Positions 29,625 through 64,000 of a stretch of DNA of 64,000 bases are shown here, in pieces. Each line of letters opens with the position of its first letter. Positions within the stretch are counted from its first letter, which is position 1. The stretch spans positions 129,758 through 193,757 of the forward strand of contig CAVURA010000014.1 of the NCBI GenBank assembly GCA_963743775.1, read 5' to 3'. This DNA is from an uncultured Bacteroidales bacterium (lineage in GTDB: Bacteria; Bacteroidota; Bacteroidia; Bacteroidales; VadinHA17). The notes below the pieces were generated by a model. It was not told where the DNA came from, ran no database searches, and was given only the letters and a program-made list of their open reading frames with translations. Made by a program: the position numbers and the translations under genes.

Positions 29625-31339
29625 CTGAACGTGGCAACACCATAAGCGATAAATGGATTAAGGCATCCATTATCGGAACGATATGGGCAGCTGCCGAGAT
29701 TGTTCTCGGCAGCTTTTTGCATAATCTCCGTGTTCCATTCAGCGGTAATGTTCTGACCGCCATCGCTCTTGTGATACTTATTTCTGTCAGTCATAAATGG
29801 CGCGAGCACGGGCTCTACTGGCGGGCCGGATTAATCTGCGCACTGATGAAAGCCATGTCGCCCAGCGCCATCATTTTCGGACCGATGATCGCCATCATTG
29901 CAGAATCATTGCTGCTTGAAGCCTCAGTGAGACTGTTCGGCAGAACATTCATCGGCTTCATCATCGGATCGATGCTGGCAATGTCATGGAACCTTTTCCA
30001 GAAAATCCTTAACCTGGTCATTTTTTACGGAGGCAAGCTCGTCGACCTGTATTCGAGCCTGACCGATTATGTTGCACGTGAGCTGAATCTTAGGTTTGAT
30101 GCTTTCTGGGCACCGCTGATTCTGCTGGTGACGCTTTATGCAGTGTTCGGCGCAGCGGCAGCCATTGTCGGCATCAGAACAGGACGCAGGATCGTTTCCC
30201 GTCCTGCCGGGGCAGTATTGCAGGAAAAGCCCGCAGCGCCGCCCTCCGGGGCACGTTTAGAAAAGCCGTTTAATTATTCGGTTATCTGGCTTGCAATTGA
30301 TATTCTGCTTGTAGCCGGTGCACTGGTGATTGTCAGCCAGGCTAAATGGATTTACTGGATCATAACGGTGATCCCTGTGACAACATTACTGGCTGTGCGC
30401 TACAAGCGTGCCATGAGACAGCTTGGCAAACCCGGATTCTGGATCACGTTCGTTGTCATTACAATGCTGTCAGCTATGGCGTTTACCGCGTTCCAGCCGG
30501 GAAGCAATAATATTGCCAATGGAGTACTGATAGGCGTGCAGATGAATTTCCGCGCATTGATCATCATCGTCGGTTTCTCCGCCCTCGGTACAGAATTGTA
30601 CAATCCTGTGATCCGCGAACTGTTCAGCAAAACACATTTCAGACAACTGCCCCTGGCGCTTGAACTCTCTGCCGAAAGCCTTCCCTCAATGATTGCGGCG
30701 ATGCCTGACCTAAAGACCGCCATTAAAGACCCGGCATCGATACTCAGCAGCATGATAGCGCAGGTTGAGAGACGGCTGAGCGAGGCCAGGGCCGAACAGA
30801 AGACAATGCAGAAGGTTTACATACTTACCGGTGAGGCAGGCGAAGGCAAAACGAGCTTACTGCAGAAACTGACGGTAGTATTGAAAGAAAAAGGGATCAT
30901 GGCGGGAGGCATCCTTGCGCCGCGGATTATGGAAGGGGAGATGACCACGGGCTATGACGTACTCGATATTATTTCTGGTATAAGAGCTCCGTTTCTCCGG
31001 CTGACAAATGCGGAAATCAGGGGGGTGGAGAGGTTCACCCGGATAGAGGCAGGGTATCAGGCAGGACTTAAAGCTCTTGACCCTGACAATAACAGAGACA
31101 GTCACGTGATTGTAATTGACGAGGCGGGTCCGCTGGAGCTCAGGGGTGAAGGCTGGGCCGGACGGATAAGCGAAATATTGAAAACAAATGAATGGCAGAT
31201 TATTCTTGTCGTCAGAAAAAGTCTTGTCACCGAGGTTATCCGAAAATTCGGCATAAAGGATCCTGCGATTTACGTGGTCGGCCCGGGTGATTACAACAAA
31301 CTATTAAATGAGGTCATTAAAACAGGCGGAAATGGATGA
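29609..31339 (+). CDS. Fusion of a multi-TM membrane domain with a C-terminal P-loop NTPase (THEP1/DUF2478-like)
   Basis: About 8 predicted TM helices in residues 1-390. Then Walker A GEAGEGKTS and Walker B VIVIDEAGPLE. Overlaps the upstream gene by 16 nt and the downstream gene by 8 nt. Confidence 0.55.
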   Translation: MRSVLTERGNTISDKWIKASIIGTIWAAAEIVLGSFLHNLRVPFSGNVLTAIALVILISVSHKWREHGLYWRAGLICALMKAMSPSAIIFGPMIAIIAESLLLEASVRLFGRTFIGFIIGSMLAMSWNLFQKILNLVIFYGGKLVDLYSSLTDYVARELNLRFDAFWAPLILLVTLYAVFGAAAAIVGIRTGRRIVSRPAGAVLQEKPAAPPSGARLEKPFNYSVIWLAIDILLVAGALVIVSQAKWIYWIITVIPVTTLLAVRYKRAMRQLGKPGFWITFVVITMLSAMAFTAFQPGSNNIANGVLIGVQMNFRALIIIVGFSALGTELYNPVIRELFSKTHFRQLPLALELSAESLPSMIAAMPDLKTAIKDPASILSSMIAQVERRLSEARAEQKTMQKVYILTGEAGEGKTSLLQKLTVVLKEKGIMAGGILAPRIMEGEMTTGYDVLDIISGIRAPFLRLTNAEIRGVERFTRIEAGYQAGLKALDPDNNRDSHVIVIDEAGPLELRGEGWAGRISEILKTNEWQIILVVRKSLVTEVIRKFGIKDPAIYVVGPGDYNKLLNEVIKTGGNG

Positions 31340-53602: not shown

Positions 53603-54670
53603 ATGAAATTGAGAAACACAGCATTGCTCCTTGGTATGGCAGCATTGATAATTGCAATTATGCCGTCCTGTAACCAGGCACCGGCAAAGAAAAGTACAAA
53701 TTCCGGAATCGTTTATTACAGGAGCCTCCTGTTCAGCGAGACACCATACGACCTTGAAAGGGGTGTACGCGAGCTGACAGCTGAAGAGGCTTCAGACATC
53801 AACAGCTATAAGTTCGTTTATGACGATACGGGCAAACTGCTGTCAGTGGAGTTTGTAAGAGGTGAAGAACCACTTGGGTATTCCTCGATGGATGGGGCCG
53901 CAAAAATAACCTACGAATACCTGGACAATAAACAGATCAAACACTTCTTTGATGAGAATGGTCAGCAGATTGAGTCGGGAGGCGCTTATACATATGAGTA
54001 TACCCTTGATGAGAAAGGAAACAGGACAGGTCTTAAGTTTTTCGACAAAGACGGACAGCCGGTTGAGAACAGGAATAAGATCCATTCATGGGTATGGACA
54101 ATCCTGGATAACGGAATGGTGCAGGAAAAAAGATACAACCTCGCGAATGAAGAGACTATCATGAATCAGTTCTGTCCTTTCTATGAGCTGAGATTCTCTT
54201 ATAACGATAAGGGTTATGTCACCAGGATGGCCAATTATATGGGAGATACTCTCTATAACTGTACAGCTGAAAACTGCGGCGATATCGGTGTTTCTTACTT
54301 TGAGTTTGAACCGAATGAATTCGGTGACAACCAGAGCTTCTCGGTATACAATGCCACCGGCCAGATGTCAAATCTGTACTGGGGCTGGTCAAGAAGAGTG
54401 AGTAAATATGATGAGAACGGGTATGTTATGGAAACTGCAGTTTTTGACCAGGACAATGAATATGTTGGCGGCAAAAGTGTACCTGTAACCCAATATACCT
54501 TTGATAGCCACGGTGCGCTGATCGAAACCAGGAATATGGACAAGGACAGGAATATTATCAATAGTCCTGAAAATGGTGTTGCCATTACTGAGTTCAAATA
54601 TGATGAGAAAGGCAACCGCACTGAGACCCTCAGATATGACAAGGACAGGGTTGCTGTTGTAGCCGAGTAG
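53603..54670 (+). CDS. Lipoprotein built from YD/RHS-like repeats
   Basis: Lipobox IMPSC. At least 6 units of the form (Y/F)xYDxxG(N/Y)...(x)FDxDG, for example YEYTLDEKGNRTGLKFFDKDGQP and FKYDEKGNRTETLRYDKD. Confidence 0.55.
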   Translation: MKLRNTALLLGMAALIIAIMPSCNQAPAKKSTNSGIVYYRSLLFSETPYDLERGVRELTAEEASDINSYKFVYDDTGKLLSVEFVRGEEPLGYSSMDGAAKITYEYLDNKQIKHFFDENGQQIESGGAYTYEYTLDEKGNRTGLKFFDKDGQPVENRNKIHSWVWTILDNGMVQEKRYNLANEETIMNQFCPFYELRFSYNDKGYVTRMANYMGDTLYNCTAENCGDIGVSYFEFEPNEFGDNQSFSVYNATGQMSNLYWGWSRRVSKYDENGYVMETAVFDQDNEYVGGKSVPVTQYTFDSHGALIETRNMDKDRNIINSPENGVAITEFKYDEKGNRTETLRYDKDRVAVVAE

Positions 54671-54688
54671 ACGAGATCCGGATTGATC

Positions 54689-55723
54689 ATGGCCAATAAA
54701 TTAAAATATTTTGCTTTTTTCCTTTCACTGGTCGCAGTAATTGCGGCAGGGTGCACCGGAAAGAAAAGCGAAAAGAAACAGGAAGCAGTTAAGGAAGTGG
54801 CTGTCGCACCTGTCATTGGGCAGGAGACTCTGCTTCTGCTAAAGGATCTTGAAGAAAACGGTGATTATGTTAACAGCCAGTATTTCCCAAGTCTTATAAA
54901 AGCGTCAGTTGTAAATGATGAGCTTGGGAAAAATGACCTGATAGTTGATCTGAGGTCACCGGAGCTATTTTCCAAAGGCCATATAAAAGGTGCTGTAAAT
55001 ATAAACTTTAGCAAGCTTCCGGAATATTTTGAGACCGGCATCAAACCTTTCGAGTTCGATAAGATTATCATGGTTTGCGAAGACGGACAGGTATCAAGTT
55101 ATACCACGTCACTGCTCAGGATGATGGGATACGGCAATGTCTTTGCCATGCGATGGGGAATGTGCGGGTGGAACAGGAGTTTTGCAGAAGAGGGCTGGCT
55201 CAAAGGCGCATCCGGCAAATATGAGGATCGCCTGGAGACCGCCACCAATGAGACTCCGGAACCTGTTGGAATGCCTGAGCTTAATACGGGCTTCTCAACG
55301 GGAAAGGAGATCGGAGATGAAAGATTCAAAAAGCTCTTTGCAGCCGGCACGGGTGATATCCTGATAACTGCTGATGATGTCTTCAGTGATCCCGGGAAAT
55401 ATTTTGTAATTAACCTTGAACGGAAAGACAAATATGATGCCGGGCATATTCCGGGAGCCGTAAGGTACAAACCTGAATCAACCCTGGGCTTCACTGACAT
55501 GATGGCAACAATCCCTTCTGACAAAATAGTTGTAATCTACTGCGGAACTGGCCATAACTCGGGATTTGCAACTGCATTCCTGAGGCTTTTCGGTTATGAT
55601 GCCAGAACCCTGAAGTACGGCAACAACAGCTTTATGTACGATAAGATGGTAAAGGAAAAGAGCGCCCTGTCATGGCTGCCCTTTACACTTGCCGAATCGA
55701 ACGATTTCCAGGTAGTAAAATAA
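54689..55723 (+). CDS. Tandem-rhodanese lipoprotein (both domains keep the catalytic Cys)
   Basis: ATG at 54689. Lipobox IAAGC. Active-site loops are IIMVCEDGQVSS and VVIYCGTGHNSG. Confidence 0.8.
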   Translation: MANKLKYFAFFLSLVAVIAAGCTGKKSEKKQEAVKEVAVAPVIGQETLLLLKDLEENGDYVNSQYFPSLIKASVVNDELGKNDLIVDLRSPELFSKGHIKGAVNINFSKLPEYFETGIKPFEFDKIIMVCEDGQVSSYTTSLLRMMGYGNVFAMRWGMCGWNRSFAEEGWLKGASGKYEDRLETATNETPEPVGMPELNTGFSTGKEIGDERFKKLFAAGTGDILITADDVFSDPGKYFVINLERKDKYDAGHIPGAVRYKPESTLGFTDMMATIPSDKIVVIYCGTGHNSGFATAFLRLFGYDARTLKYGNNSFMYDKMVKEKSALSWLPFTLAESNDFQVVK

Positions 55724-55745
55724 TCAGGGGGTTATCATGCCCTAT

Positions 55746-55783
55746 AAATTCCGGTTTGCAGGATTTGCAGACCGGAATTTTTT
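55746..55783. terminator. Bidirectional hairpin terminator between convergent genes
   Basis: AAATTCCGGT (55746-55755) pairs with ACCGGAATTT (55771-55780) around a 15-nt loop. T-run on the plus strand and A-run on the other. Confidence 0.55.
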
Positions 55784-56204
55784 ATTGCAGTTCATTCTTA
55801 CTTGTATCCTGAATGATTAAGATATTTTTTATGCCCATCTCGCTGAGCACCATCCATACCCTGGCAGACACGGAGTTATCGTCAGAATAAAGGACGACGG
55901 GGCCCCTGTTCTTACTGATGAGTGAGAGGTTGGTTTTTTCGAGTATCGATTCGGGGTTCAAAATCAGGATCTTATCCTTTGGCAGCTCTATCCGCGGAGC
56001 TTCATTTCCCAGTACGACCAGCAGCATATCACTGCCCATGGTGCGAATCTGATCTGCAGTAACGATGTTTGAACGGAGAGCTGAAGGACCGGCCCACCTG
56101 GCGGCATCATATCTGAAATTATGACTGTAGGTCCTGATCAATACCAGGATAATCGCCAGAAGAGTTATTGAAAGAACGAGCCAATATCGTCTGAAGAATT
56201 TCAT
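55782..56204 (-). CDS. Membrane-anchored rhodanese-homology protein, catalytic Cys replaced (inactive type)
   Basis: N-terminal TM helix. The loop PVVLYSDDNSVSARV has Ser where the Cys is expected. Confidence 0.6.
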   Translation of the reverse strand: MKFFRRYWLVLSITLLAIILVLIRTYSHNFRYDAARWAGPSALRSNIVTADQIRTMGSDMLLVVLGNEAPRIELPKDKILILNPESILEKTNLSLISKNRGPVVLYSDDNSVSARVWMVLSEMGIKNILIIQDTSKNELQ

Positions 56205-56228
56205 CTGTTTATCCGTTTGGTTAATTTA

Positions 56229-56840
56229 TTATTCGCATCCGCCGTCAAGCTTTTTTGCAGAGAATTTTCTTGACTCCAGGAATTGTGTTTTAAGACTGTC
56301 AGGGAGGCTGTTCAGTTGGGTGAACATCTCTCCGGCGCGTCTTCTTGTTTCGAACAGGGCATTTTCCCTTGCCGTTATCCTGTCACCTGCAAATTTCGTC
56401 TCCATCACTGTCGTGATCCATTCAGTGATACCGCCTTCCATGACATAGCTGTTTTCATATCCCAGGCCTCTGGCATATACCAGTGCATAGTCCGCTTCGG
56501 TATCTTCCGCGGTATAGAAGATATTCCTGATCTTTTTATTGCCGAGCCAGGCTTCCGGATCTTTCCCGATGAACTCGGGATAGGGTATATTTACAGCTCC
56601 GGGGATTGCCTGTTTCCTGAATTCTTCCGGTGATCTGAGGTCTATCAGCTGAACCGTGTTGTCTTCCCTTACAATAAATTCCGCGACCTGATCAACGGTG
56701 AATGAGACATCCTCATTAAGGACCTCCGGAAGAAGCTGTCCGGGCTTTGCGGTAAAAGAGCGGTTGGCCGTGAGTGGCAGCAATGCCAGGATCAGGCTGA
56801 GGAGCAGGAGGAGGGCGGAAAATTCTTTTCTGATTTTCAT
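56229..56840 (-). CDS. Secreted rhodanese-homology protein, catalytic Cys replaced (inactive type)
   Basis: Signal peptide. LIDLRSPEEF...GAVNIP and EGGITEW motifs. The loop NIFYTAEDTEAD has Thr110 at the Cys position. The only Cys is the penultimate residue (..DGGCE). Confidence 0.65.
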   Translation of the reverse strand: MKIRKEFSALLLLLSLILALLPLTANRSFTAKPGQLLPEVLNEDVSFTVDQVAEFIVREDNTVQLIDLRSPEEFRKQAIPGAVNIPYPEFIGKDPEAWLGNKKIRNIFYTAEDTEADYALVYARGLGYENSYVMEGGITEWITTVMETKFAGDRITARENALFETRRRAGEMFTQLNSLPDSLKTQFLESRKFSAKKLDGGCE

Positions 56841-56849
56841 ACCTGTTAG

Positions 56850-57452
56850 TTATAAGTCGTTTGTTATTTCAGGCCGTGCGAATCTTTTTTCGGCCAGCTC
56901 GGCTATCCAGAACATGGCAACTGCTGCGGCTACCAACAAAAGAGTGAAGAGCCCCGGAGAGAGGCCCAGCGTCTCGTTGATCTTCACCGGTCCTTTATAC
57001 TGTGCATTAGCCAGCCCTTCAATCATCGGGTAAGATTCAGTGAAGAGAAATGCACCGGTAAATCCTCCCGCAACAAAGACCATGGCGTCGATCTTGCCGA
57101 TTGACATGGCACAAAGGCCTGTGCCGGGGCAAAACCCGCCCATGATGAAGCCGGCTCCCATTATTACTCCTCCAACTATGGATGCGGTGACATAAAACTC
57201 GTTTACGTATACCTGATTTAGGTTCAGCAGTCCCAGATAACTGAGGAACTGTGATCCGATAAGAGCAACTATTGCAGCTGTAAAAAATACTTTTATTACG
57301 GTGGCATCATATCCGTAAAACATGCCTGCCAGTTTCCTGCTCGAAGAGAATCCTGCCTGTTCAAGGGCAAACCCGAAGCCTGTCCCGATAAGCAATGCGG
57401 TCAGCATATTGAGCCATTCCGGGAAAGCAAAGTATGATGATAGTGGAGCCAT
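56850..57452 (-). CDS. YeeE/YedE-family sulfur-compound transporter half
   Basis: About 5 TM helices. Contains the conserved GGFCPGTG segment. Confidence 0.75.
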   Translation of the reverse strand: MAPLSSYFAFPEWLNMLTALLIGTGFGFALEQAGFSSSRKLAGMFYGYDATVIKVFFTAAIVALIGSQFLSYLGLLNLNQVYVNEFYVTASIVGGVIMGAGFIMGGFCPGTGLCAMSIGKIDAMVFVAGGFTGAFLFTESYPMIEGLANAQYKGPVKINETLGLSPGLFTLLLVAAAVAMFWIAELAEKRFARPEITNDL

Positions 57453-57508
57453 TTCGATTGAGTTGTGTGTTTTACTTTAACCTTTATCCTTAAACCATTA
57501 ACCTTCTC

Positions 57509-58018
57509 TCAGATCCAGTTTTTCCTGAAGAACCATGCAAAGGCAAATGCAGAGCCGAAGATGGCGATCATTGTCACGAACCCTGCCGTAGAGAGGACAG
57601 CCATGCCTGACAGTGCCGCACCGCTTGTACATCCCCTTGCCAGCTGACCGCCGTAGACAAACAGCACGCCTCCGAGAAATGCAAAAATCAGTCTCCGTGT
57701 GACAGATATCTTCGGCGATTTTTCCACTTTGAGTTTCAGTCTTCCCGAGACAGCACCGGAGATAAGACCTCCGGCAACCACCCCGAATATCTCAAGTGTC
57801 AGCCAGTTTGTAAGCGGCTTTTTGCCGTTCTCAAAATACTTTGAATAGTATGCTGAATTTTCCACATGCGGAGGATTGACGGCCCCGACTATCGATACGA
57901 CGCAGTATTTTATACCTCCGCTGGCACCGAGGCCGCGGCCTGAAACGACCATTGCCAGGAGGAGGACTATGCCAAGCAGAGTTCCTGCCAGGTAGGGATT
58001 CATGTAACTTCGTTTCAT
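57509..58018 (-). CDS. YeeE/YedE-family sulfur-compound transporter half
   Basis: Starts at the ATG at 58018 (MKRSYMNPYLAG...). Contains the conserved LARGCTSG segment. Confidence 0.75.
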   Translation of the reverse strand: MKRSYMNPYLAGTLLGIVLLLAMVVSGRGLGASGGIKYCVVSIVGAVNPPHVENSAYYSKYFENGKKPLTNWLTLEIFGVVAGGLISGAVSGRLKLKVEKSPKISVTRRLIFAFLGGVLFVYGGQLARGCTSGAALSGMAVLSTAGFVTMIAIFGSAFAFAWFFRKNWI

Positions 58019-58131
58019 AGTTGAAAGTTCTGGTGGTGAGTGTTCTTCAGATGACAAAAATAACAACTATCCATAGCTGGACAGATATATGGAAAGGAAA
58101 TATTTTACAGAGTTGTACTGTCAGATGGTTA

Positions 58132-59208
58132 TCAGGCCTTTCGGTTTTTGCTTTTATCAAAAGCTTCCAGACTTTTCGATACCTGAGCCTGACGCCTCAT
58201 CACAATCTTGTTTTCGATAATTGAATATAAAATCGATATTGCCAGCGTTGCCAGGATAACGGTGAATGAGAACCATGAATGATTTGAGAAAAACATACTG
58301 ACGGATTCAATGGCGCAGAGTATCATTTTTGCTCCTACAAAGAACAGGATAAAGCATATCCCGGTTTTCAGGTATTTGAATATTTTCAAAATCCCGTTCA
58401 GGGCGAAGAAAAGCGAAACAAGTCCCATGCAGGCAAACACATTGGATGTTATGGCCAGGAAGTTGCTTTCATTCAAAGTCAGGACCTGATTGCCTTCCTG
58501 AATTACCCCGATGACGGCAGGAACAGAATCGACTGCAAACATCACGTCGGTCGATCCAATCAGTAAAAATGTCAGCAGGAACGGCGTAATTGCAAATTTC
58601 CCGGCAATGCGTGAATGAAGTACAGGATTATGGTTGCCTGTGTCAACTGTGAATATTTTTTTGGCTGCCCGGATTAATAAATTTTTTTCCGGATCGATAG
58701 ATTCTTCATCATCCCCATCTTTGATCATCTTTACAGCCATGACTATCAGGAAAGCCCCGAAGAGGTAAATCAACCATTCAAACCTGTTAATCAGGCTCAT
58801 TCCAACCAGGATGAACAGGGTGCGGAATATGATGGAAAGCAAAATACCGAACTTCAGCAGTATCGGCTGAACATCCTCCCTTACTTTCATCATGGTAAAT
58901 ATCATAATGAAAACAAATAAGTTGTCAATAGACAGCATGTATTCAGTCAGATAGCCTGAAAAGAATTTCATTCCCATCATGCCCCTGGTAGTCAGGCCGG
59001 AATTTTCATTCTGCGGATAAAAGAAAGTAATGGCCAGGCCAAACATCAAAGCAACGCTGATCCATACGCCGGTCCATTTAAGCGCTGTCGCAATACTTAC
59101 TTCAGTATGCCTGTGCTTTGCAGCCTGCAGATCGATAATAAAACCAATGAAAAAAATTGCAATAAAAGCAATCCAAAATAAGAATTCCAGGTTCATAGCA
59201 AAGTACAT
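58132..59208 (-). CDS. TerC-family integral membrane protein
   Basis: YLTEYMLSIDNLFVF and a second (A)VDSVPAV half-repeat. About 9 TM helices. Confidence 0.85.
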   Translation of the reverse strand: MYFAMNLEFLFWIAFIAIFFIGFIIDLQAAKHRHTEVSIATALKWTGVWISVALMFGLAITFFYPQNENSGLTTRGMMGMKFFSGYLTEYMLSIDNLFVFIMIFTMMKVREDVQPILLKFGILLSIIFRTLFILVGMSLINRFEWLIYLFGAFLIVMAVKMIKDGDDEESIDPEKNLLIRAAKKIFTVDTGNHNPVLHSRIAGKFAITPFLLTFLLIGSTDVMFAVDSVPAVIGVIQEGNQVLTLNESNFLAITSNVFACMGLVSLFFALNGILKIFKYLKTGICFILFFVGAKMILCAIESVSMFFSNHSWFSFTVILATLAISILYSIIENKIVMRRQAQVSKSLEAFDKSKNRKA

Positions 59209-59339: not shown

Positions 59340-59447
59340 TTCCGAAAGCAGTCAGAAAATGATTGATGATTAAGCATCAGTAGTACCTGCCGGAGGTCAA
59401 TCGTACTTTTTTCTTAAAGGTAATTTTATGGGAATTCCTGGAGAGAT

Positions 59448-59476
59448 GAAATAATAACAAAATCTGTTATTATTTC
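59448..59476. promoter_or_regulatory. Perfect 12-5-12 inverted repeat, candidate Rrf2 operator
   Basis: GAAATAATAACA (59448-59459), aaatc, then TGTTATTATTTC (59465-59476). It lies 39 nt upstream of the Rrf2 ATG in the terC/rrf2 divergent region. Confidence 0.5.
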
Positions 59477-59514
59477 AGAATTTATTTTTAAATTGCCATA
59501 CCGAGGTATCATTT

Positions 59515-59919
59515 ATGAATTTTGCAAAGACAACATCTTATTCACTAAATGTTTTAAGCTATCTGGCGAAACATGGGAACATCATAATGTCAGCCAGTTA
59601 CCTTCATAAGAAGCTTGGCATCCCGTACTCATATTTACGTCAGGTCCTCAGCGAACTTTCAAAGAAGGGATTTATTGACAGTACCAGAGGAAGCAGGGGA
59701 GGCTTTATCATAAGCAGGGACATATCCACCATTTACCTCTCTGACATAATTGAAGCTACCGAGGGAATGGATAGCTTTAACAGGTGTATCATGGGATTCA
59801 GTAAATGTCCATTCAATTACGGGTGTTCCATCCATCCGGTATGGGTGGAAATGAGAATGAATATTATTAACGTTCTTAAAAAAACATCATTAGCAGATTT
59901 AATAAAGATCAGGAAGTAA
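59515..59919 (+). CDS. Rrf2-family transcriptional regulator with three-Cys (Fe-S type) motif
   Basis: N-terminal wHTH (YSLNVLSYLA...SELSKKGFIDSTRGSRGGF). C91-x6-C98-x5-C104 sits at almost the same positions as the IscR/NsrR cluster ligands. Confidence 0.85.
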   Translation: MNFAKTTSYSLNVLSYLAKHGNIIMSASYLHKKLGIPYSYLRQVLSELSKKGFIDSTRGSRGGFIISRDISTIYLSDIIEATEGMDSFNRCIMGFSKCPFNYGCSIHPVWVEMRMNIINVLKKTSLADLIKIRK

Positions 59920-59959
59920 TAATATAAATCAAATTAAATAATTTTAAAAAAGAGATCAT

Positions 59960-60523
59960 ATGGTTGATTCCGAAATGGTTCTTACAGGGCAGGCAATTGC
60001 ATATACAATTTATTGTATTGTAATTATTCTGGTTGTTGCCTGGTTTGCATGGAAAATAACAGGCAACGGTAATGGCAAAGGGGTTAAACCGGCATTGTTT
60101 TATACTTTCGTCGGTTTTCTTACAGTCCTGGGTGTTTCATTGCATATCATAACGCTTAACACTATTCCCTGGACAAAAATGGATCTTAACAGGTCTGATT
60201 ATACACCTGACAAGTCATTTAACATCACAGTCAGAAACCATCAGTTCATTCTCCCCGAAGAAAAGATGGTGGTAAACGTCGATGACAAGGTACTCTTCGA
60301 TGTAACCTCAGACGACCTGACTTATGGCTTTGGTCTTTTCAGGGAAGACAACAGTATGTTGTTTCAGATGCAGGTTGTACCTGGACACCGGAATGACATT
60401 ATCTGGCACTTTGACCGGCCCGGCGTGTATACAATCAGGTCAACTGAATACTCCGGCCCCAAAGGAGCAGCAATGATAGTGAAAGGTGCGGTACAGGTAG
60501 TCCCGGGCAATGCTGCTAACTAA
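59960..60523 (+). CDS. Heme-copper oxidoreductase subunit II homolog (2 TM plus cupredoxin) with no CuA ligands
   Basis: Two N-terminal TM helices. The cupredoxin segment DVTSDDL aligns with DV(I)HSF. STEYSGPKGAAM aligns with the CuA loop CSE(I/L)CGxxHxxM, with both Cys changed to Ser and the His changed to Gly. Confidence 0.7.
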   Translation: MVDSEMVLTGQAIAYTIYCIVIILVVAWFAWKITGNGNGKGVKPALFYTFVGFLTVLGVSLHIITLNTIPWTKMDLNRSDYTPDKSFNITVRNHQFILPEEKMVVNVDDKVLFDVTSDDLTYGFGLFREDNSMLFQMQVVPGHRNDIIWHFDRPGVYTIRSTEYSGPKGAAMIVKGAVQVVPGNAAN

Positions 60524-60554
60524 GACGTTTAAAAATCTTTAAAACATTACGGAT

Positions 60555-62174
60555 ATGAGTTTTACAAAAACATTTATATATGGTGAGGAAGGACTTTTCA
60601 AGTCTGAAACCCTAACCCCGATGCAAAAGCTGACACTGCGTTTTGTCGTTGTAGGGCTTATCTATTTCGGCTTTGTCGTGATAGAAGGAATGCTCATGAG
60701 GCTCTATGAGGTCAAACCTCTGCCGTTTATCACTGAACCCCAGTTTTTTGCAATCCTTACAGCACATCCTTTGGTTGGCATATTCGGATCCACATATTCT
60801 ATTGTCTGTGGAGCATTCCTGTTCCTGGTACCCTTCCTGATGAAGAAACCTCTATGGAGCATCAAGCTCGGCAACTGGAATTTCATTCTTATTGCCGTCG
60901 GGACATTTGTCTTCTGGTTTTCAGGTTTTGTAAGTCATTATGCTCCTCTGTATACACTTTACTGGCCTCTTCCTGCTGACTTCTCCCAGTTCAGTGTCTG
61001 GGGAGGAACGTTCTTTATAATCGGGATCGCTATTGTCATGGTTGGGACAGCCCTTTTCATCATCAATATTTTTAAAACAATTACCTATACTCCTGACGGA
61101 TGGGAGAAACAGCGTTCAGGCGCTCTGCTGTCGTCTGCCCTCGGAATAACCGGGTTCAATAATCTTTTCAGGAAAAACAAAAAGGAACATCTTGTTCCTC
61201 TGCCCGTGGCTGCTGTTGCCCGGGGAAGCGTTGACATGGCGTTAAATACAATCACCATTCTGTTCACAGGTGTCCTCATTCTTGTGTATATGATTGGTTC
61301 AATCCTGGGGTACGATCTGAAGGAGACGGCAATTGATGCCCTGCTGTACAAGAACTGGTTCTGGTGGGGACTCGATCTGATTGCTGACGGACTTGTTCTG
61401 ATCTTTGTTGCCGGTACCTGGTATCTGCTTGCAATGATGATCACAGGGAAGCCCCTCTTCATGCAGAATATTGCACGTGCGGCACTGCTTGTTGAACTGG
61501 TCGTTTCATGGACAGTCTGGTCTCATCACCTGCTTTCAGATCAGGCACAACCAGCTATACTGAAAGTTGTCTCCGGCGAAATGGTAACTGCATTTGAACT
61601 TATTACCCAGGGACTTGCATTCTTTATCACATTGGCTACCCTGTGGAGTGCAAGACCTCTGAAAATGACAAATCCGTTGAAATTCCTTCTGGGTGGTTTA
61701 CTTGGATTTGCCCTGGCAGTTCCAGCCGGAATTATGCAGGCGGATGTGGGCCTGAACAGGATTCTCCACAATACACAGTGGGTTGTGGGTCCGCATGTAC
61801 ATGTGGCAATTCTCATCGGGCTGACAATGACACTGTATTCAGCTATTTATCTTCTCTTCCCGATTCTCACCAACGGAGCTAAGATATACAGCCAGAAGCT
61901 TGCAAACGTTCATTTCTGGTGCCATCTGATCGGAGGAATTGGCATGGGTGCATTCATGGGTATGGCCGGATTGGGCGGTATGCTCAGGCGGTCTATCTAT
62001 GTAAACGGGGAATTTAATTTGTTCATGATACTGGCAGCTGTATCCGGAACTTTAATACTTATCGGATTTCTGGCATTCTTCTATAATATAGTTATGAGTG
62101 TCGGGCTGAAAGGAGTACTGGGTATTTTTACACCTGCAAAGGTTAATACCAAAGATCTGGTGCCCCAGGGTTAG
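60555..62174 (+). CDS. Heme-copper oxidoreductase subunit I homolog, divergent (Asp at the helix-VI metal-ligand position)
   Basis: About 12 TM helices. H71 (LTAHPLVGIFG), W-F-W-W-G-L-D274-L-I-A-D278-G, H324-H325 (WSHHLL), and H413/H415 (GPHVHV). The spacing between these sites matches canonical enzymes. Confidence 0.75.
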   Translation: MSFTKTFIYGEEGLFKSETLTPMQKLTLRFVVVGLIYFGFVVIEGMLMRLYEVKPLPFITEPQFFAILTAHPLVGIFGSTYSIVCGAFLFLVPFLMKKPLWSIKLGNWNFILIAVGTFVFWFSGFVSHYAPLYTLYWPLPADFSQFSVWGGTFFIIGIAIVMVGTALFIINIFKTITYTPDGWEKQRSGALLSSALGITGFNNLFRKNKKEHLVPLPVAAVARGSVDMALNTITILFTGVLILVYMIGSILGYDLKETAIDALLYKNWFWWGLDLIADGLVLIFVAGTWYLLAMMITGKPLFMQNIARAALLVELVVSWTVWSHHLLSDQAQPAILKVVSGEMVTAFELITQGLAFFITLATLWSARPLKMTNPLKFLLGGLLGFALAVPAGIMQADVGLNRILHNTQWVVGPHVHVAILIGLTMTLYSAIYLLFPILTNGAKIYSQKLANVHFWCHLIGGIGMGAFMGMAGLGGMLRRSIYVNGEFNLFMILAAVSGTLILIGFLAFFYNIVMSVGLKGVLGIFTPAKVNTKDLVPQG

Positions 62175-62307
62175 TCGGTTTAAATATATTTCTTTAAACT
62201 TTGTGTACTGATATTTGTCTTACATACGGATTTTTATTGAAGAGTATGAAAGAAAAAAAACTTTTGACTCTATGCACCGATTGCTAAAACAGTCAAAAAT
62301 TGAAAAT

Positions 62308-62646
62308 ATGATTACAAGAAATTACAAAACAGAAGAAGCTAAAGAAAATCCGCATAAAGTGGATGTACGGCAACTTTACAATGATCCCTCGGCCCAGATC
62401 ATGCATATCACACTGCAACCGGGTGAAAGCCTGAAACCCCATAAAACTCCTGTCGATGTGGTATTTTATATACTGGAAGGCACCCCGGTAGTTCACATAG
62501 ACGAAGAATCGAAGGTTGTTGAAAAAGATACCCTTGTTGAGAGCCCGGCAGATGTTGTACATTTTATAAGCAACGAAAGCCACAATAATGTACGTGTACT
62601 TGTCATCAAGGCACCGAGACCGGAAAAGATCACAAAATTACTATAG
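62308..62646 (+). CDS. Small single-domain cupin
   Basis: Starts at the ATG at 62308. 112 aa with the cupin pattern ...HITLQPGESLKPHKTP.D..FYILEG............PADVVHFISN. Confidence 0.65.
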   Translation: MITRNYKTEEAKENPHKVDVRQLYNDPSAQIMHITLQPGESLKPHKTPVDVVFYILEGTPVVHIDEESKVVEKDTLVESPADVVHFISNESHNNVRVLVIKAPRPEKITKLL

Positions 62647-62664
62647 TCATAAACGGTCATCCAA

Positions 62665-63930
62665 ATGAGTGAATTAATCAATAATTCAAAATACAGGAAA
62701 GAAAAGCTGAAGGAGCTTATCCTGAAGTTGCACCACGGCGGGGATCCACAGCAGGTCCGTACTGAGCTGATAAGCACATTGCAGCAGATACCGTACGGTG
62801 AGGTTGTGGAGGTAGAGCAGGAACTGATAAAGGAAGGATTGCCTCAGACGGAAGTGCTGAAACTTTGTGATGTTCACGGTGAAGTACTTGACGGGCATAT
62901 AGACCAGAGCGGGGCACAGCCCATTCCGGAAGGACATCCGGTGGATGTATTTAAACGGGAGAATAAAGAACTGGTAAAAGTTGTGGAAAAAACCCAGGTG
63001 CTGATTGCTTCATTATATACTGTCAGCGATAATGATTTTAAGAACTATTCGCAAAAAATCCTGTCGTGCTTCAATGACCTGATGGATGTTGACAAACACT
63101 ATAAGCGCAAGGAATATCTTGTATTTCCGTATCTCGAGAAGAAAGACATCACAGGACCTCCCATGGTGATGTGGGGAAAGCACGATGAAATACGCGAACA
63201 GCTTAAGGGCTGTATCGAAATACTGCGTACAGAGGGACTGAAGAAATCGGATCTTGAGGATGCTGAGGAAATACTGTTTTCACCTGTACTGAAGGCAGTG
63301 GCTGATATGACCAAAAAAGAGGAGGATATACTTTTCCCCATGTGTATGGACATGCTCACAACCGATGACTGGTGGCAGATACACAAACAGACACTCGATT
63401 TTGGTTTTACCCTTTACGATCCGCAGATCGACTGGAAACCAGAAGGCATTTCCTTTTCCAATGAGAATGAAAGCAAGGGAGCTCTGGGCGAAAATGGCAC
63501 AGTGCATTTACCCTCAGGCAGTTTCACAGCAAAAGAGGTACAGGCGATATTAAACACCGTGCCGTTCGATATGACTTTTGTTGACAAAGACGATAAGGTA
63601 AAATACTTTACCCAGGGGAAGGAAAGAATATTTGCCCGCAGCCGTTCAATTATCAACCGTGATGTCAGGTTATGCCATCCTCCCGGAAGTGTCCATATTA
63701 TTGAAAAGATACTGGAGGATTTTAAATCGGGCGCGGCATCCCATGCACCTTTCTGGATACAGATGCAGGGCAAGTTTATCTACATAGAATATTTTGCACT
63801 CCGGGGTGAAAAGGGAGAATATCTTGGAACCCTGGAAGTCTCGCAGGACCTGTCAAATGCAAGAAGCCTTGAGGGTGAGCAGCGAATTTTATCATACACC
63901 GGCAAAAAAAATAAACAATGGCCAGCCTGA
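62665..63930 (+). CDS. DUF438 / hemerythrin-like / PAS-domain protein
   Basis: N-terminal DUF438-type segment (KEKLKELILKLHHGGDP...). Central H/E-rich hemerythrin-like helices (HYKRKEYLVFPYLEK...MWGKHDEIRE). C-terminal PAS_10-like segment (FVDKDDKVKYF...RDVRLCHPP...). Confidence 0.7.
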   Translation: MSELINNSKYRKEKLKELILKLHHGGDPQQVRTELISTLQQIPYGEVVEVEQELIKEGLPQTEVLKLCDVHGEVLDGHIDQSGAQPIPEGHPVDVFKRENKELVKVVEKTQVLIASLYTVSDNDFKNYSQKILSCFNDLMDVDKHYKRKEYLVFPYLEKKDITGPPMVMWGKHDEIREQLKGCIEILRTEGLKKSDLEDAEEILFSPVLKAVADMTKKEEDILFPMCMDMLTTDDWWQIHKQTLDFGFTLYDPQIDWKPEGISFSNENESKGALGENGTVHLPSGSFTAKEVQAILNTVPFDMTFVDKDDKVKYFTQGKERIFARSRSIINRDVRLCHPPGSVHIIEKILEDFKSGAASHAPFWIQMQGKFIYIEYFALRGEKGEYLGTLEVSQDLSNARSLEGEQRILSYTGKKNKQWPA

Positions 63931-64000
63931 TCATTACGCCAAAAACAAAGATATACGACCTTCTGCAGGCGTATCCCGACCTGGAAGATATTCTTATTAG
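63918..64000 (+). CDS. DUF1858-domain protein, 3'-truncated by the window edge
   Basis: My translation of the ATG at 63918 is MASLIITPKTKIYDLLQAYPDLEDILI..., the typical DUF1858 N-terminus. Overlaps the upstream stop by 13 nt. Confidence 0.55.
   Translation, partial: MASLIITPKTKIYDLLQAYPDLEDILI

Follow-up and report, generated by a model that had tools for sequence, protein, structure and literature searches.

Close to the end of the 64,000-nt stretch of DNA analysed here (the window; contig CAVURA010000014.1 of an uncultured Bacteroidales bacterium) lie two plus-strand genes encoding subunit II (59960-60523) and subunit I (60555-62174) of an unusual heme-copper oxidoreductase (HCO), preceded by the gene for an Rrf2-type regulator (59515-59919). 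The pair was assigned to the gNOR family by its match to the published description of that family, of which it is very probably a member. We favour, with less confidence, its interpretation as a two-subunit gNOR-type enzyme that probably functions as a quinol-driven nitric oxide (NO) reductase under the control of an iron-sulfur (Fe-S) Rrf2 protein. The gNOR family has already been published and a function has been proposed for it; the locus is a further member, and the picture of the family is unchanged. What is added here is the invariance of both active-site aspartates, the scale of the family, the Rrf2 head gene, a dyad that constitutes a candidate operator, and the recurrence of sulfur-transfer genes in the neighbourhood.

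Subunit I (539 aa; Pfam COX1, 6.6e-57) was aligned with subunit I of the ba3 oxidase of Thermus thermophilus. In helix VI, the ba3 motif FWWTGHPIVY corresponds to FWWGLDLIAD, His233 being replaced by Asp274 and Tyr237 by Asp278. The histidines of helix VII (H324 and H325), of the H-x-H motif of helix X (H414 and H416) and of helix II (H71) are kept, with H71, H414 and H416 aligning with the ba3 heme ligands H72, H384 and H386, respectively. Among the full-length relatives (40-96% identity), D274, D278, H324, H325, H414 and H71 were each present in 246/246 sequences and H416 in 245/246, and the WGLD[LM]IAD motif was unchanged in all 246. The His-to-Asp change at the catalytic metal, which had been pointed out in the sequence-only reading, is therefore general in this set and extends to the cross-link Tyr, which is also Asp. 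No Tyr is found at the position of ba3 Tyr237, a migrated Tyr in the style of the C-family not having been searched for. From these alignments, subunit I is predicted to keep a low-spin heme with two His ligands (H71 and H416) and a His-ligated high-spin heme (H414), together with a putative non-heme metal site consisting of D274, H324 and H325, with D278 one helix turn away, at the position of the cross-link Tyr. The closest sequences without the Asp were at most 30-32% identical and comprised B-family-like proteins (GHPVVY), His/Asn types and one Arg/Gln oddity. One 462-aa HCO homologue encoded outside the window (P0261; 30% identical) has an Arg at the position of the helix VI His and a Gln at that of the Tyr (WVALRFYLQ), with HWQH for HH; this, too, is an unusual active site.

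Subunit II (187 aa) matched the TIGR CoxB model (1e-9) and scored just under the cutoff with Pfam COX2 (21 bits). It is predicted to consist of two N-terminal hydrophobic stretches, probably transmembrane, and a cupredoxin domain. In the alignment with the CuA domain of ba3, four of the five aligned CuA ligands are replaced (His114 by Tyr122, Cys149 by Ser161, Cys153 by Ser165 and His157 by Gly169), and Met160 is kept (Met172). The Tyr/Ser/Ser/Gly replacements were found in 72/72 subunit II orthologues, and the signature TYGFG...RSTEYSGP also occurs in one Thermoprotei and one Anaerolineae member. Domain searches detected no cytochrome c domain in any protein of the cluster and, together with the ligand alignment, bear out the earlier description of an oxidase-like pair devoid of both CuA and a cytochrome c domain.

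The AlphaFold (AF2) model of subunit I (predicted local distance difference test score, pLDDT, 79; predicted template-modelling score, pTM, 0.83) displays the fold of an HCO subunit I. A fold search with this model gave template-modelling scores (TM-scores) of 0.70-0.77 to the aa3, bo3 and aa3-600 oxidases, and did not separate an affinity for the A-family from one for the B-family. The family profile matched A- and B-family oxidases of the PDB at 1e-20 to 1e-16 and cbb3 at about 1e-9, with no cNOR or qNOR structure among these matches; in the single-sequence search, the best PDB matches were ba3. Two invariant residues of helix I, E44 and R49, correspond in the alignment to the D and R of RGFADAIMMR in bo3, the Asp of RGFAD being a quinol-site residue of cytochrome bo3; the equivalents of His98 and Gln101 of bo3 are not conserved.

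These features are those of gNOR. In the passages devoted to the family by Murali, Hemp, Gennis et al. (PNAS 2024; PMC11214002), gNOR is characterised by an Asp in place of one active-site metal His, a replacement unique among HCO families, by a cupredoxin subunit II without CuA residues, and by candidate quinol-binding residues. The same passages describe it as related to the B-family, as resembling oxygen reductases more than cNOR and qNOR, and as present in Bacteria and Archaea, mainly from sulfidic environments. In the relevant part of a table in PMC8756737, the entry for gNOR at the position of the Tyr is ‘D’, with Sulfurimonas, Sulfurovum and Persephonella as carriers. The gNOR of Ca. 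Methylomirabilis oxyfera corresponds to Damo_1118-1119. Earlier descriptions of the family are said to be those of Hemp & Gennis and of Sievert et al., both in 2008. The pair described here shares all the tested sequence features of the published family (ligands for both hemes, Asp for the metal His, Asp at the Tyr position and a cupredoxin domain without CuA), and nothing was seen to contradict the family definition. Membership of gNOR is the natural reading, because no other HCO family has been reported to lose an active-site His. The sequence-only reading had described gNOR as a His-to-Asp family for which biochemical data were scarce or absent; the first statement matches PMC11214002 and the table in PMC8756737, and the second agrees with the passages on gNOR in PMC11214002.

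Two other assignments were considered and rejected. Membership of cNOR or qNOR is contradicted by a site with two His and an Asp, rather than three His and a Glu, and by the lack of a cytochrome c domain; an A- or B-family oxygen reductase is contradicted by the presence of Asp at the positions of both the metal His and the cross-link Tyr, and by the absence of the CuA ligands. The pair would share with qNOR the proposed conversion of NO to nitrous oxide (N2O), the proposed quinol donor and the lack of a CuA or cytochrome c relay, but qNOR consists of one fused chain that includes a NorC-like domain, has an Fe(B) site of three His and a Glu, and belongs to the C-family/cNOR lineage. The subunit I fold and the heme ligands are shared with both bo3 (A-family) and ba3 (B-family), and the subunit II of bo3 is also a CuA-less cupredoxin; in contrast, oxygen reductases have a CuB with three His and a His-Tyr cross-link, where the pair has Asp at both the His and the Tyr.

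With each GTDB species represented by one genome, a scan detected relatives in at least 541 genomes. The loci compared were the best 80 of these, with subunits I 76-99% identical, and the neighbourhood set contained 82 loci, in all of which (82/82) the reading frames were intact. The best 80 loci were mostly from Bacteroidales, with some metagenome-assembled genomes (MAGs) labelled Ignavibacteria, Gemmatimonadota, Acidobacteriota, Aminicenantes or Chlorobiaceae. One Bacteroidales MAG (L003) has a subunit I 99% identical to that of the window and full synteny with the window cluster. A second clade, about 45% identical and with both Asp and the His ligands kept, comprises members from Thermoprotei, Methanomethylicia, Anaerolineae, Dehalococcoidia and Actinobacteria. 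The matches to P0123, a 47%-identical relative, were likewise from Thermoprotei, Methanomethylicia, Chloroflexi and Actinobacteria, with no Sulfurimonas or Methylomirabilis names among them. In a representative library clustered at 50% identity, the subunit I family was small and well separated. Between MAGs labelled Bacteroidales and those with these other labels, subunit I identity is 79-83% (L043, L051, L053, L063, L065, L069, L072-L076, L078, L079 and L081). Either recent horizontal transfer or binning errors would account for this level of identity.

The gene for subunit II lies immediately 5' of that for subunit I in 80/82 loci, that is, wherever the contig allows, and the Rrf2 gene lies immediately 5' of subunit II in about 45 of 79 close loci. 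In the distant loci from Thermoprotei (L083) and Anaerolineae (L084 and L085), only the two subunit genes recur, with RSTEYSGP kept and no Rrf2, and are flanked by a divergent HTH_10 regulator gene (in the archaeon) or by unrelated genes. The conserved unit is the pair, because only the pair recurs across all loci, including those of archaea and Anaerolineae; Rrf2 is an addition in the Bacteroidota/Fibrobacterota-Chlorobiota-Bacteroidota (FCB) clade, and the six-gene arrangement of the window is a local elaboration. The six genes had been proposed as one module, but conservation of this module did not survive the comparison of neighbourhoods, in which only the pair was universal and the genes downstream from it were confined to the nearest relatives. 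Pfam searches with 137 proteins flanking the pair at other loci revealed no recurrent partner, the commonest families being represented by five proteins at most. The earlier statement that the window contains no oxidase-accessory or denitrification gene held in the parts checked, the 12 kb upstream and the 10 kb on either side of the cluster in L001, a 97% relative. At one locus (L043), a hemerythrin gene occupies position -2, in place of Rrf2. At two others (L020, 4908-7728; L035, 9747-12564), genes for a qNOR (NorB_cytochrome_c-like plus COX1) and for a RIC/YtfE-like hemerythrin are convergent to the pair, and these genomes have two different types of heme-copper NO reductase side by side.

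The Rrf2 regulator (134 aa; Pfam Rrf2, 9e-30) has the motif C91-x6-C98-x5-C104-x2-H107, in which the three Cys are conserved in 43/43 orthologues and H107 in 42/43. These residues align with the Cys92, Cys98, Cys104 and His107 ligands of Escherichia coli IscR, the two proteins differing in spacing (C-x6-C-x5-C versus C-x5-C-x5-C in IscR), and the closest solved structures are those of IscR. The protein scored only at superfamily level, below the equivalog cutoffs for IscR (TIGR02010; 65 bits versus a cutoff of 207.55), NsrR (NF008240; 42 bits versus a cutoff of 182), SUF and RirA. Position 8, occupied by the Asp ligand in NsrR, is a Ser in the window protein and never an Asp in the 43 orthologues (Ser, Glu, Lys, Gln or Arg). 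Orthology with NsrR was rejected, as the score is far below the equivalog cutoff, Asp8 is missing and His107 is conserved instead. Of the Fe-S and NO-sensing architecture of NsrR and IscR that had been put forward for this protein, the Cys motif and IscR-type ligands were confirmed, whereas the relationship to NsrR was not. NO sensing would follow from Fe-S chemistry, since there is no NsrR orthology on which to base it. The regulator resembles both NsrR and IscR in belonging to the winged-helix Rrf2 fold family and in having a palindromic operator, here a candidate, at its own promoter.

This candidate operator is a dyad, ATG[AC]TA[CT]-N6-[GA]TA[GT]CAT, which ends 2-3 nt before the Rrf2 ATG across loci. 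The copy in the window, TTGCCATACCGAGGTATCAT (59493-59512), has two mismatches and ends 2 nt before the ATG. With a motif derived from the same, related loci, the dyad was found in 38/43 loci with Rrf2 versus 1/26 without (Fisher test, 8e-13), and its density was 18-fold above that in the rest of the loci. A second copy is present 45-60 nt upstream of subunit II in about 16 loci; neither the regions preceding the genes for the cupin, DUF438 and DUF1858 proteins described below nor the rest of the window yielded a convincing copy. Its association with Rrf2 suggests that the dyad may serve as the operator of this regulator. The published NsrR box, gATGyAT-N5-ATrCATc (PMC1274295), has similar ATG..CAT half-sites, but the spacing in the dyad is 3 nt longer (ATG-N14-CAT versus ATG-N11-CAT). 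An element resembling the -7 element of Bacteroidetes (TAnnTTTG in relatives; TATTTTTA at 59483-59490 in the window) is located just upstream of the dyad, and a bound dimer would therefore be expected to cover the transcription start. The Rrf2 head gene, the dyad and the downstream cupin, DUF438 and DUF1858 genes are not mentioned in the passages of the gNOR papers dealing with the family.

We propose the following mechanism for the enzyme. Menaquinol would reduce the low-spin heme b, which would in turn pass the electrons on to a site made up of the high-spin heme and a non-heme metal (most likely iron) with D274, H324 and H325 as its ligands and D278 nearby; two NO would be coupled and reduced at this site (2 NO + 2 e- + 2 H+ -> N2O + H2O). 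NO reduction is the most likely reaction because a 2-His/carboxylate site without the His-Tyr cofactor resembles the Fe(B) site of NO reductases, and four-electron reduction of O2 is not expected, because there is no His-Tyr cofactor to supply the fourth electron, a reasoning set out in the passages on gNOR in PMC11214002. Cytochrome c is not expected to be the donor, because subunit II lacks CuA, and the most likely source of electrons would be a quinol, here menaquinol, by analogy with cytochrome bo3 and qNOR. For the regulator, we envisage a dimer with a Cys3-His-ligated Fe-S cluster that would repress its own promoter through the dyad abutting the start codon, and would be released from the DNA when NO or another oxidant nitrosylates or oxidises the cluster. 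The hemerythrin/PAS and DrpB-like DUF1858-DUF2249 proteins are plausible accessories in sensing or repair, which, with the cupin, would have been added downstream in this lineage.

The earlier suggestion of an atypical NO reductase is supported in its central part by the gNOR features of the pair, with the function as proposed for that family, and on balance we consider NO reduction to be somewhat more likely than not as the physiological reaction. The genomic context also argues in this direction: Rrf2 is upstream in about 45 of the 79 close loci, a qNOR and a RIC-like hemerythrin are encoded at L020 and L035 and a hemerythrin at L043, and DUF1858/DUF2249 proteins are implicated in nitrate sensing. 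Several points weigh against this interpretation. NO reduction by gNOR, probably quinol-dependent, is itself a proposal, no member having been purified or assayed according to the passages on gNOR in PMC11214002. The A-family oxidases (bo3/COX1) came slightly ahead of the B-family in the profile and fold searches, whereas the published tree places gNOR beside the B-family. A preprint (10.1101/592808) describes gNOR with a His-to-Glu change at a heme ligand, which is not part of the published family definition and was not found here (H71 and H414 in 246/246, H416 in 245/246); that description either applies to a different subclade or does not hold throughout the family. The accessory genes for the cupin, DUF438 and DUF1858 proteins are not conserved with the enzyme pair across the 82 loci. 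Neither the 137 neighbour proteins scanned nor two distant loci revealed a nir, nos or nrf gene adjoining the pair. Finally, the affinities of the regulator are with IscR more than with NsrR, whose Asp8 ligand it does not have, and its signal may therefore not be NO.

Some of these observations would also suit a gNOR-type enzyme whose substrate is a different small oxidant (for instance trace O2, H2O2, N2O, nitrite or hydroxylamine), in an IscR-like general Fe-S/redox or iron-stress operon of an anaerobe. We consider this alternative unlikely, if the most serious of those examined. It would be consistent with a regulator that has IscR-type ligands and IscR as its best solved relatives, with the lack of denitrification genes beside the pair, and with the fact that no gNOR activity has ever been measured, according to the passages on the family in PMC11214002. 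The same passages regard the loss of the His-Tyr cofactor as evidence against O2 reduction and cite a synthetic mimic of the site that reduces NO; in L020 and L035, the fact that the pair has genes for a qNOR and for a RIC-like hemerythrin as neighbours likewise points to NO rather than to another oxidant.

A bolder possibility, which we regard as improbable, is that the gNORs of Bacteroidales and the FCB group are more than simple NO-detoxifying enzymes and perform a new type of HCO chemistry, for example as sulfide-proof enzymes with a 2-His/2-Asp site at an NO/sulfide interface, under the control of a new IscR-like Rrf2 sensor and its dyad and with a tie to YeeE and rhodanese. Less probable still is a role linked directly to sulfur or sulfide, in which the enzyme would be a sulfide-insensitive NO reductase connected with the handling of thiosulfate or persulfide, or would act on a sulfur-nitrogen substrate. 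In 12-17 other Bacteroidales loci, subunit I is directly followed, on the same strand, by a block of two YeeE/YedE genes and a rhodanese gene, which is inverted and upstream in the window. This block speaks in favour of such a role, as does the origin of gNORs, mainly from sulfidic habitats according to the passages on the family in PMC11214002. This linkage is, however, confined to closely related Bacteroidales and may be inherited synteny, the block is absent from the loci of Ignavibacteria, Gemmatimonadota, Chloroflexi and archaea, and no HCO is generally known to act on sulfur compounds. A decayed oxygen reductase without an enzymatic role, as the replacement of four of five CuA ligands, of one metal His and of the catalytic Tyr might suggest, is extremely improbable, given that these replacements are invariant in 246 and 72 sequences from bacteria and archaea, that all heme ligands are kept and frames are intact in 82/82 loci, and that subunits I are about 80% identical between MAGs of different phyla.

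According to the passages on gNOR in PMC11214002, this is the sole heme-copper family reported to have an active-site His replaced, and none of its members has been purified. The family occurs widely among anaerobic Bacteroidales and in neighbouring phyla, with members in at least 541 species genomes and a very well conserved sequence, and in the Bacteroidales-centred group it is accompanied by its own putative Fe-S regulator and a definable candidate operator, such that experimenters have at their disposal a compact three-gene unit and a regulatory switch that can be tested. Should N2O indeed be formed from NO by this enzyme in sulfidic, anoxic habitats, it would constitute an unaccounted source of N2O in organisms usually seen as fermenters.

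Open reading frames (ORFs) and profile searches delineate six closely spaced plus-strand genes, from 59515 to the end of the window, downstream of a perfect 13+13-nt palindrome. The co-directional, tightly packed arrangement and the palindrome reported from the sequence alone were both recovered, and profile searches for COX1, COX2, Rrf2, hemerythrin, DUF438 and DUF1858 returned the families named there, with COX2 below the cutoff. Downstream of the pair are genes for a small cupin (62308-62646; Cupin_2, 7e-13), for a 421-aa protein with DUF438, hemerythrin (HHE) and PAS_10 domains identified with Pfam (62665-63930), and for a DUF1858 protein (63921-64000), also recognised by its Pfam domain, of which the N-terminal 26 aa are encoded before the window end cuts the gene. 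Comparison with 112-aa orthologues indicated that the cupin is likely to start at the ATG at 62308, rather than at the TTG at 62215 from which the ORF was mechanically called. Neighbouring genes are mostly separated by 18-40 nt; subunit I and the cupin lie 40 nt apart if the TTG is taken as the start and 133 nt apart with the preferred ATG, and the DUF438 and DUF1858 genes overlap by 10 nt. The only terminator-like match on the plus strand lies inside subunit I, and the total number of such matches is that expected from shuffled sequences.

In relatives with a 97-99% identical subunit I, the full form of the last gene encodes a 172-aa DUF1858-DUF2249 protein. The whole cluster is present in L001, on an 818-kb contig, where the last gene is followed by a convergent gene for a D-Ala-D-Ala ligase. 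The cupin, DUF438/hemerythrin/PAS and DUF1858-DUF2249 genes are adjacent to the pair only in L001/L004, an L002 fragment, L003 and L006, and lie no more than 8 kb away in L005, L014, L020 and L035. Overall, a cupin gene is found near the pair in 8/82 loci, sometimes divergent and upstream of Rrf2, and a DUF438/hemerythrin/PAS gene in 9/82. The Cupin_2 family match does not by itself appear to assign a function to the cupin; the DUF438/hemerythrin/PAS protein is a candidate di-iron sensor or repair protein. The DUF1858-DUF2249 protein has the same domain types as Thermus DrpB, and the DUF1858/DUF2249 proteins DrpA and DrpB of Thermus act in nitrate sensing (PMC6282519).

Upstream of the cluster, a TerC gene (58132-59208) divergent from Rrf2 separates the latter from the sulfur block, which occupies 53603-58066 on the minus strand and encodes an RHS-like lipoprotein, a two-domain rhodanese, a small ORF product, a rhodanese and two YeeE/YedE (Sulf_transp) half-proteins. 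The linkage of the YeeE/rhodanese block to the pair survives rearrangement. Searches of the TerC/Rrf2 intergenic region for riboswitches and known RNAs gave only sub-threshold hairpin matches.

The palindrome is located in this divergent promoter region (59447-59477) and has the structure TGAAATAATAACA-aaatc-TGTTATTATTTCA, with 13-nt arms separated by 5 nt. It is the longest perfect inverted repeat with a short spacer in the window, and arms of 13 nt were obtained in 0/20 block shuffles. The palindrome is real, perfect and beyond chance, as previously claimed, but it is lineage-specific, being found only in the window and in the 99% relative L003, and may be a site for a dimeric DNA-binding protein in this lineage. 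It was rejected as a conserved operator on account of this restriction, the element linked to Rrf2 being a different one, the dyad 16 nt downstream. Relatives have a Crp/Fnr-like box, TGTGAAATAATTAACA (TGTGA-N6-T[AC]ACA), that is homologous to the left arm of the palindrome and from which the window palindrome appears to be derived by a one-base deletion. This box is found 55-59 nt upstream of the dyad in 17/41 loci, and 41-50 nt upstream in two more; the loci with the box 50-59 nt upstream are L013, L014, L017-L020, L022, L024, L026-L028, L032-L035, L037 and L080, and in L037, it is a perfect TGTGA-N6-TCACA. Its near-fixed distance upstream of the Rrf2 promoter suggests that there may be a second, activator-type input. 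The second-longest perfect inverted repeat with a short spacer in the window is located at 29689-29714 and has 11-nt arms and a 4-nt spacer.

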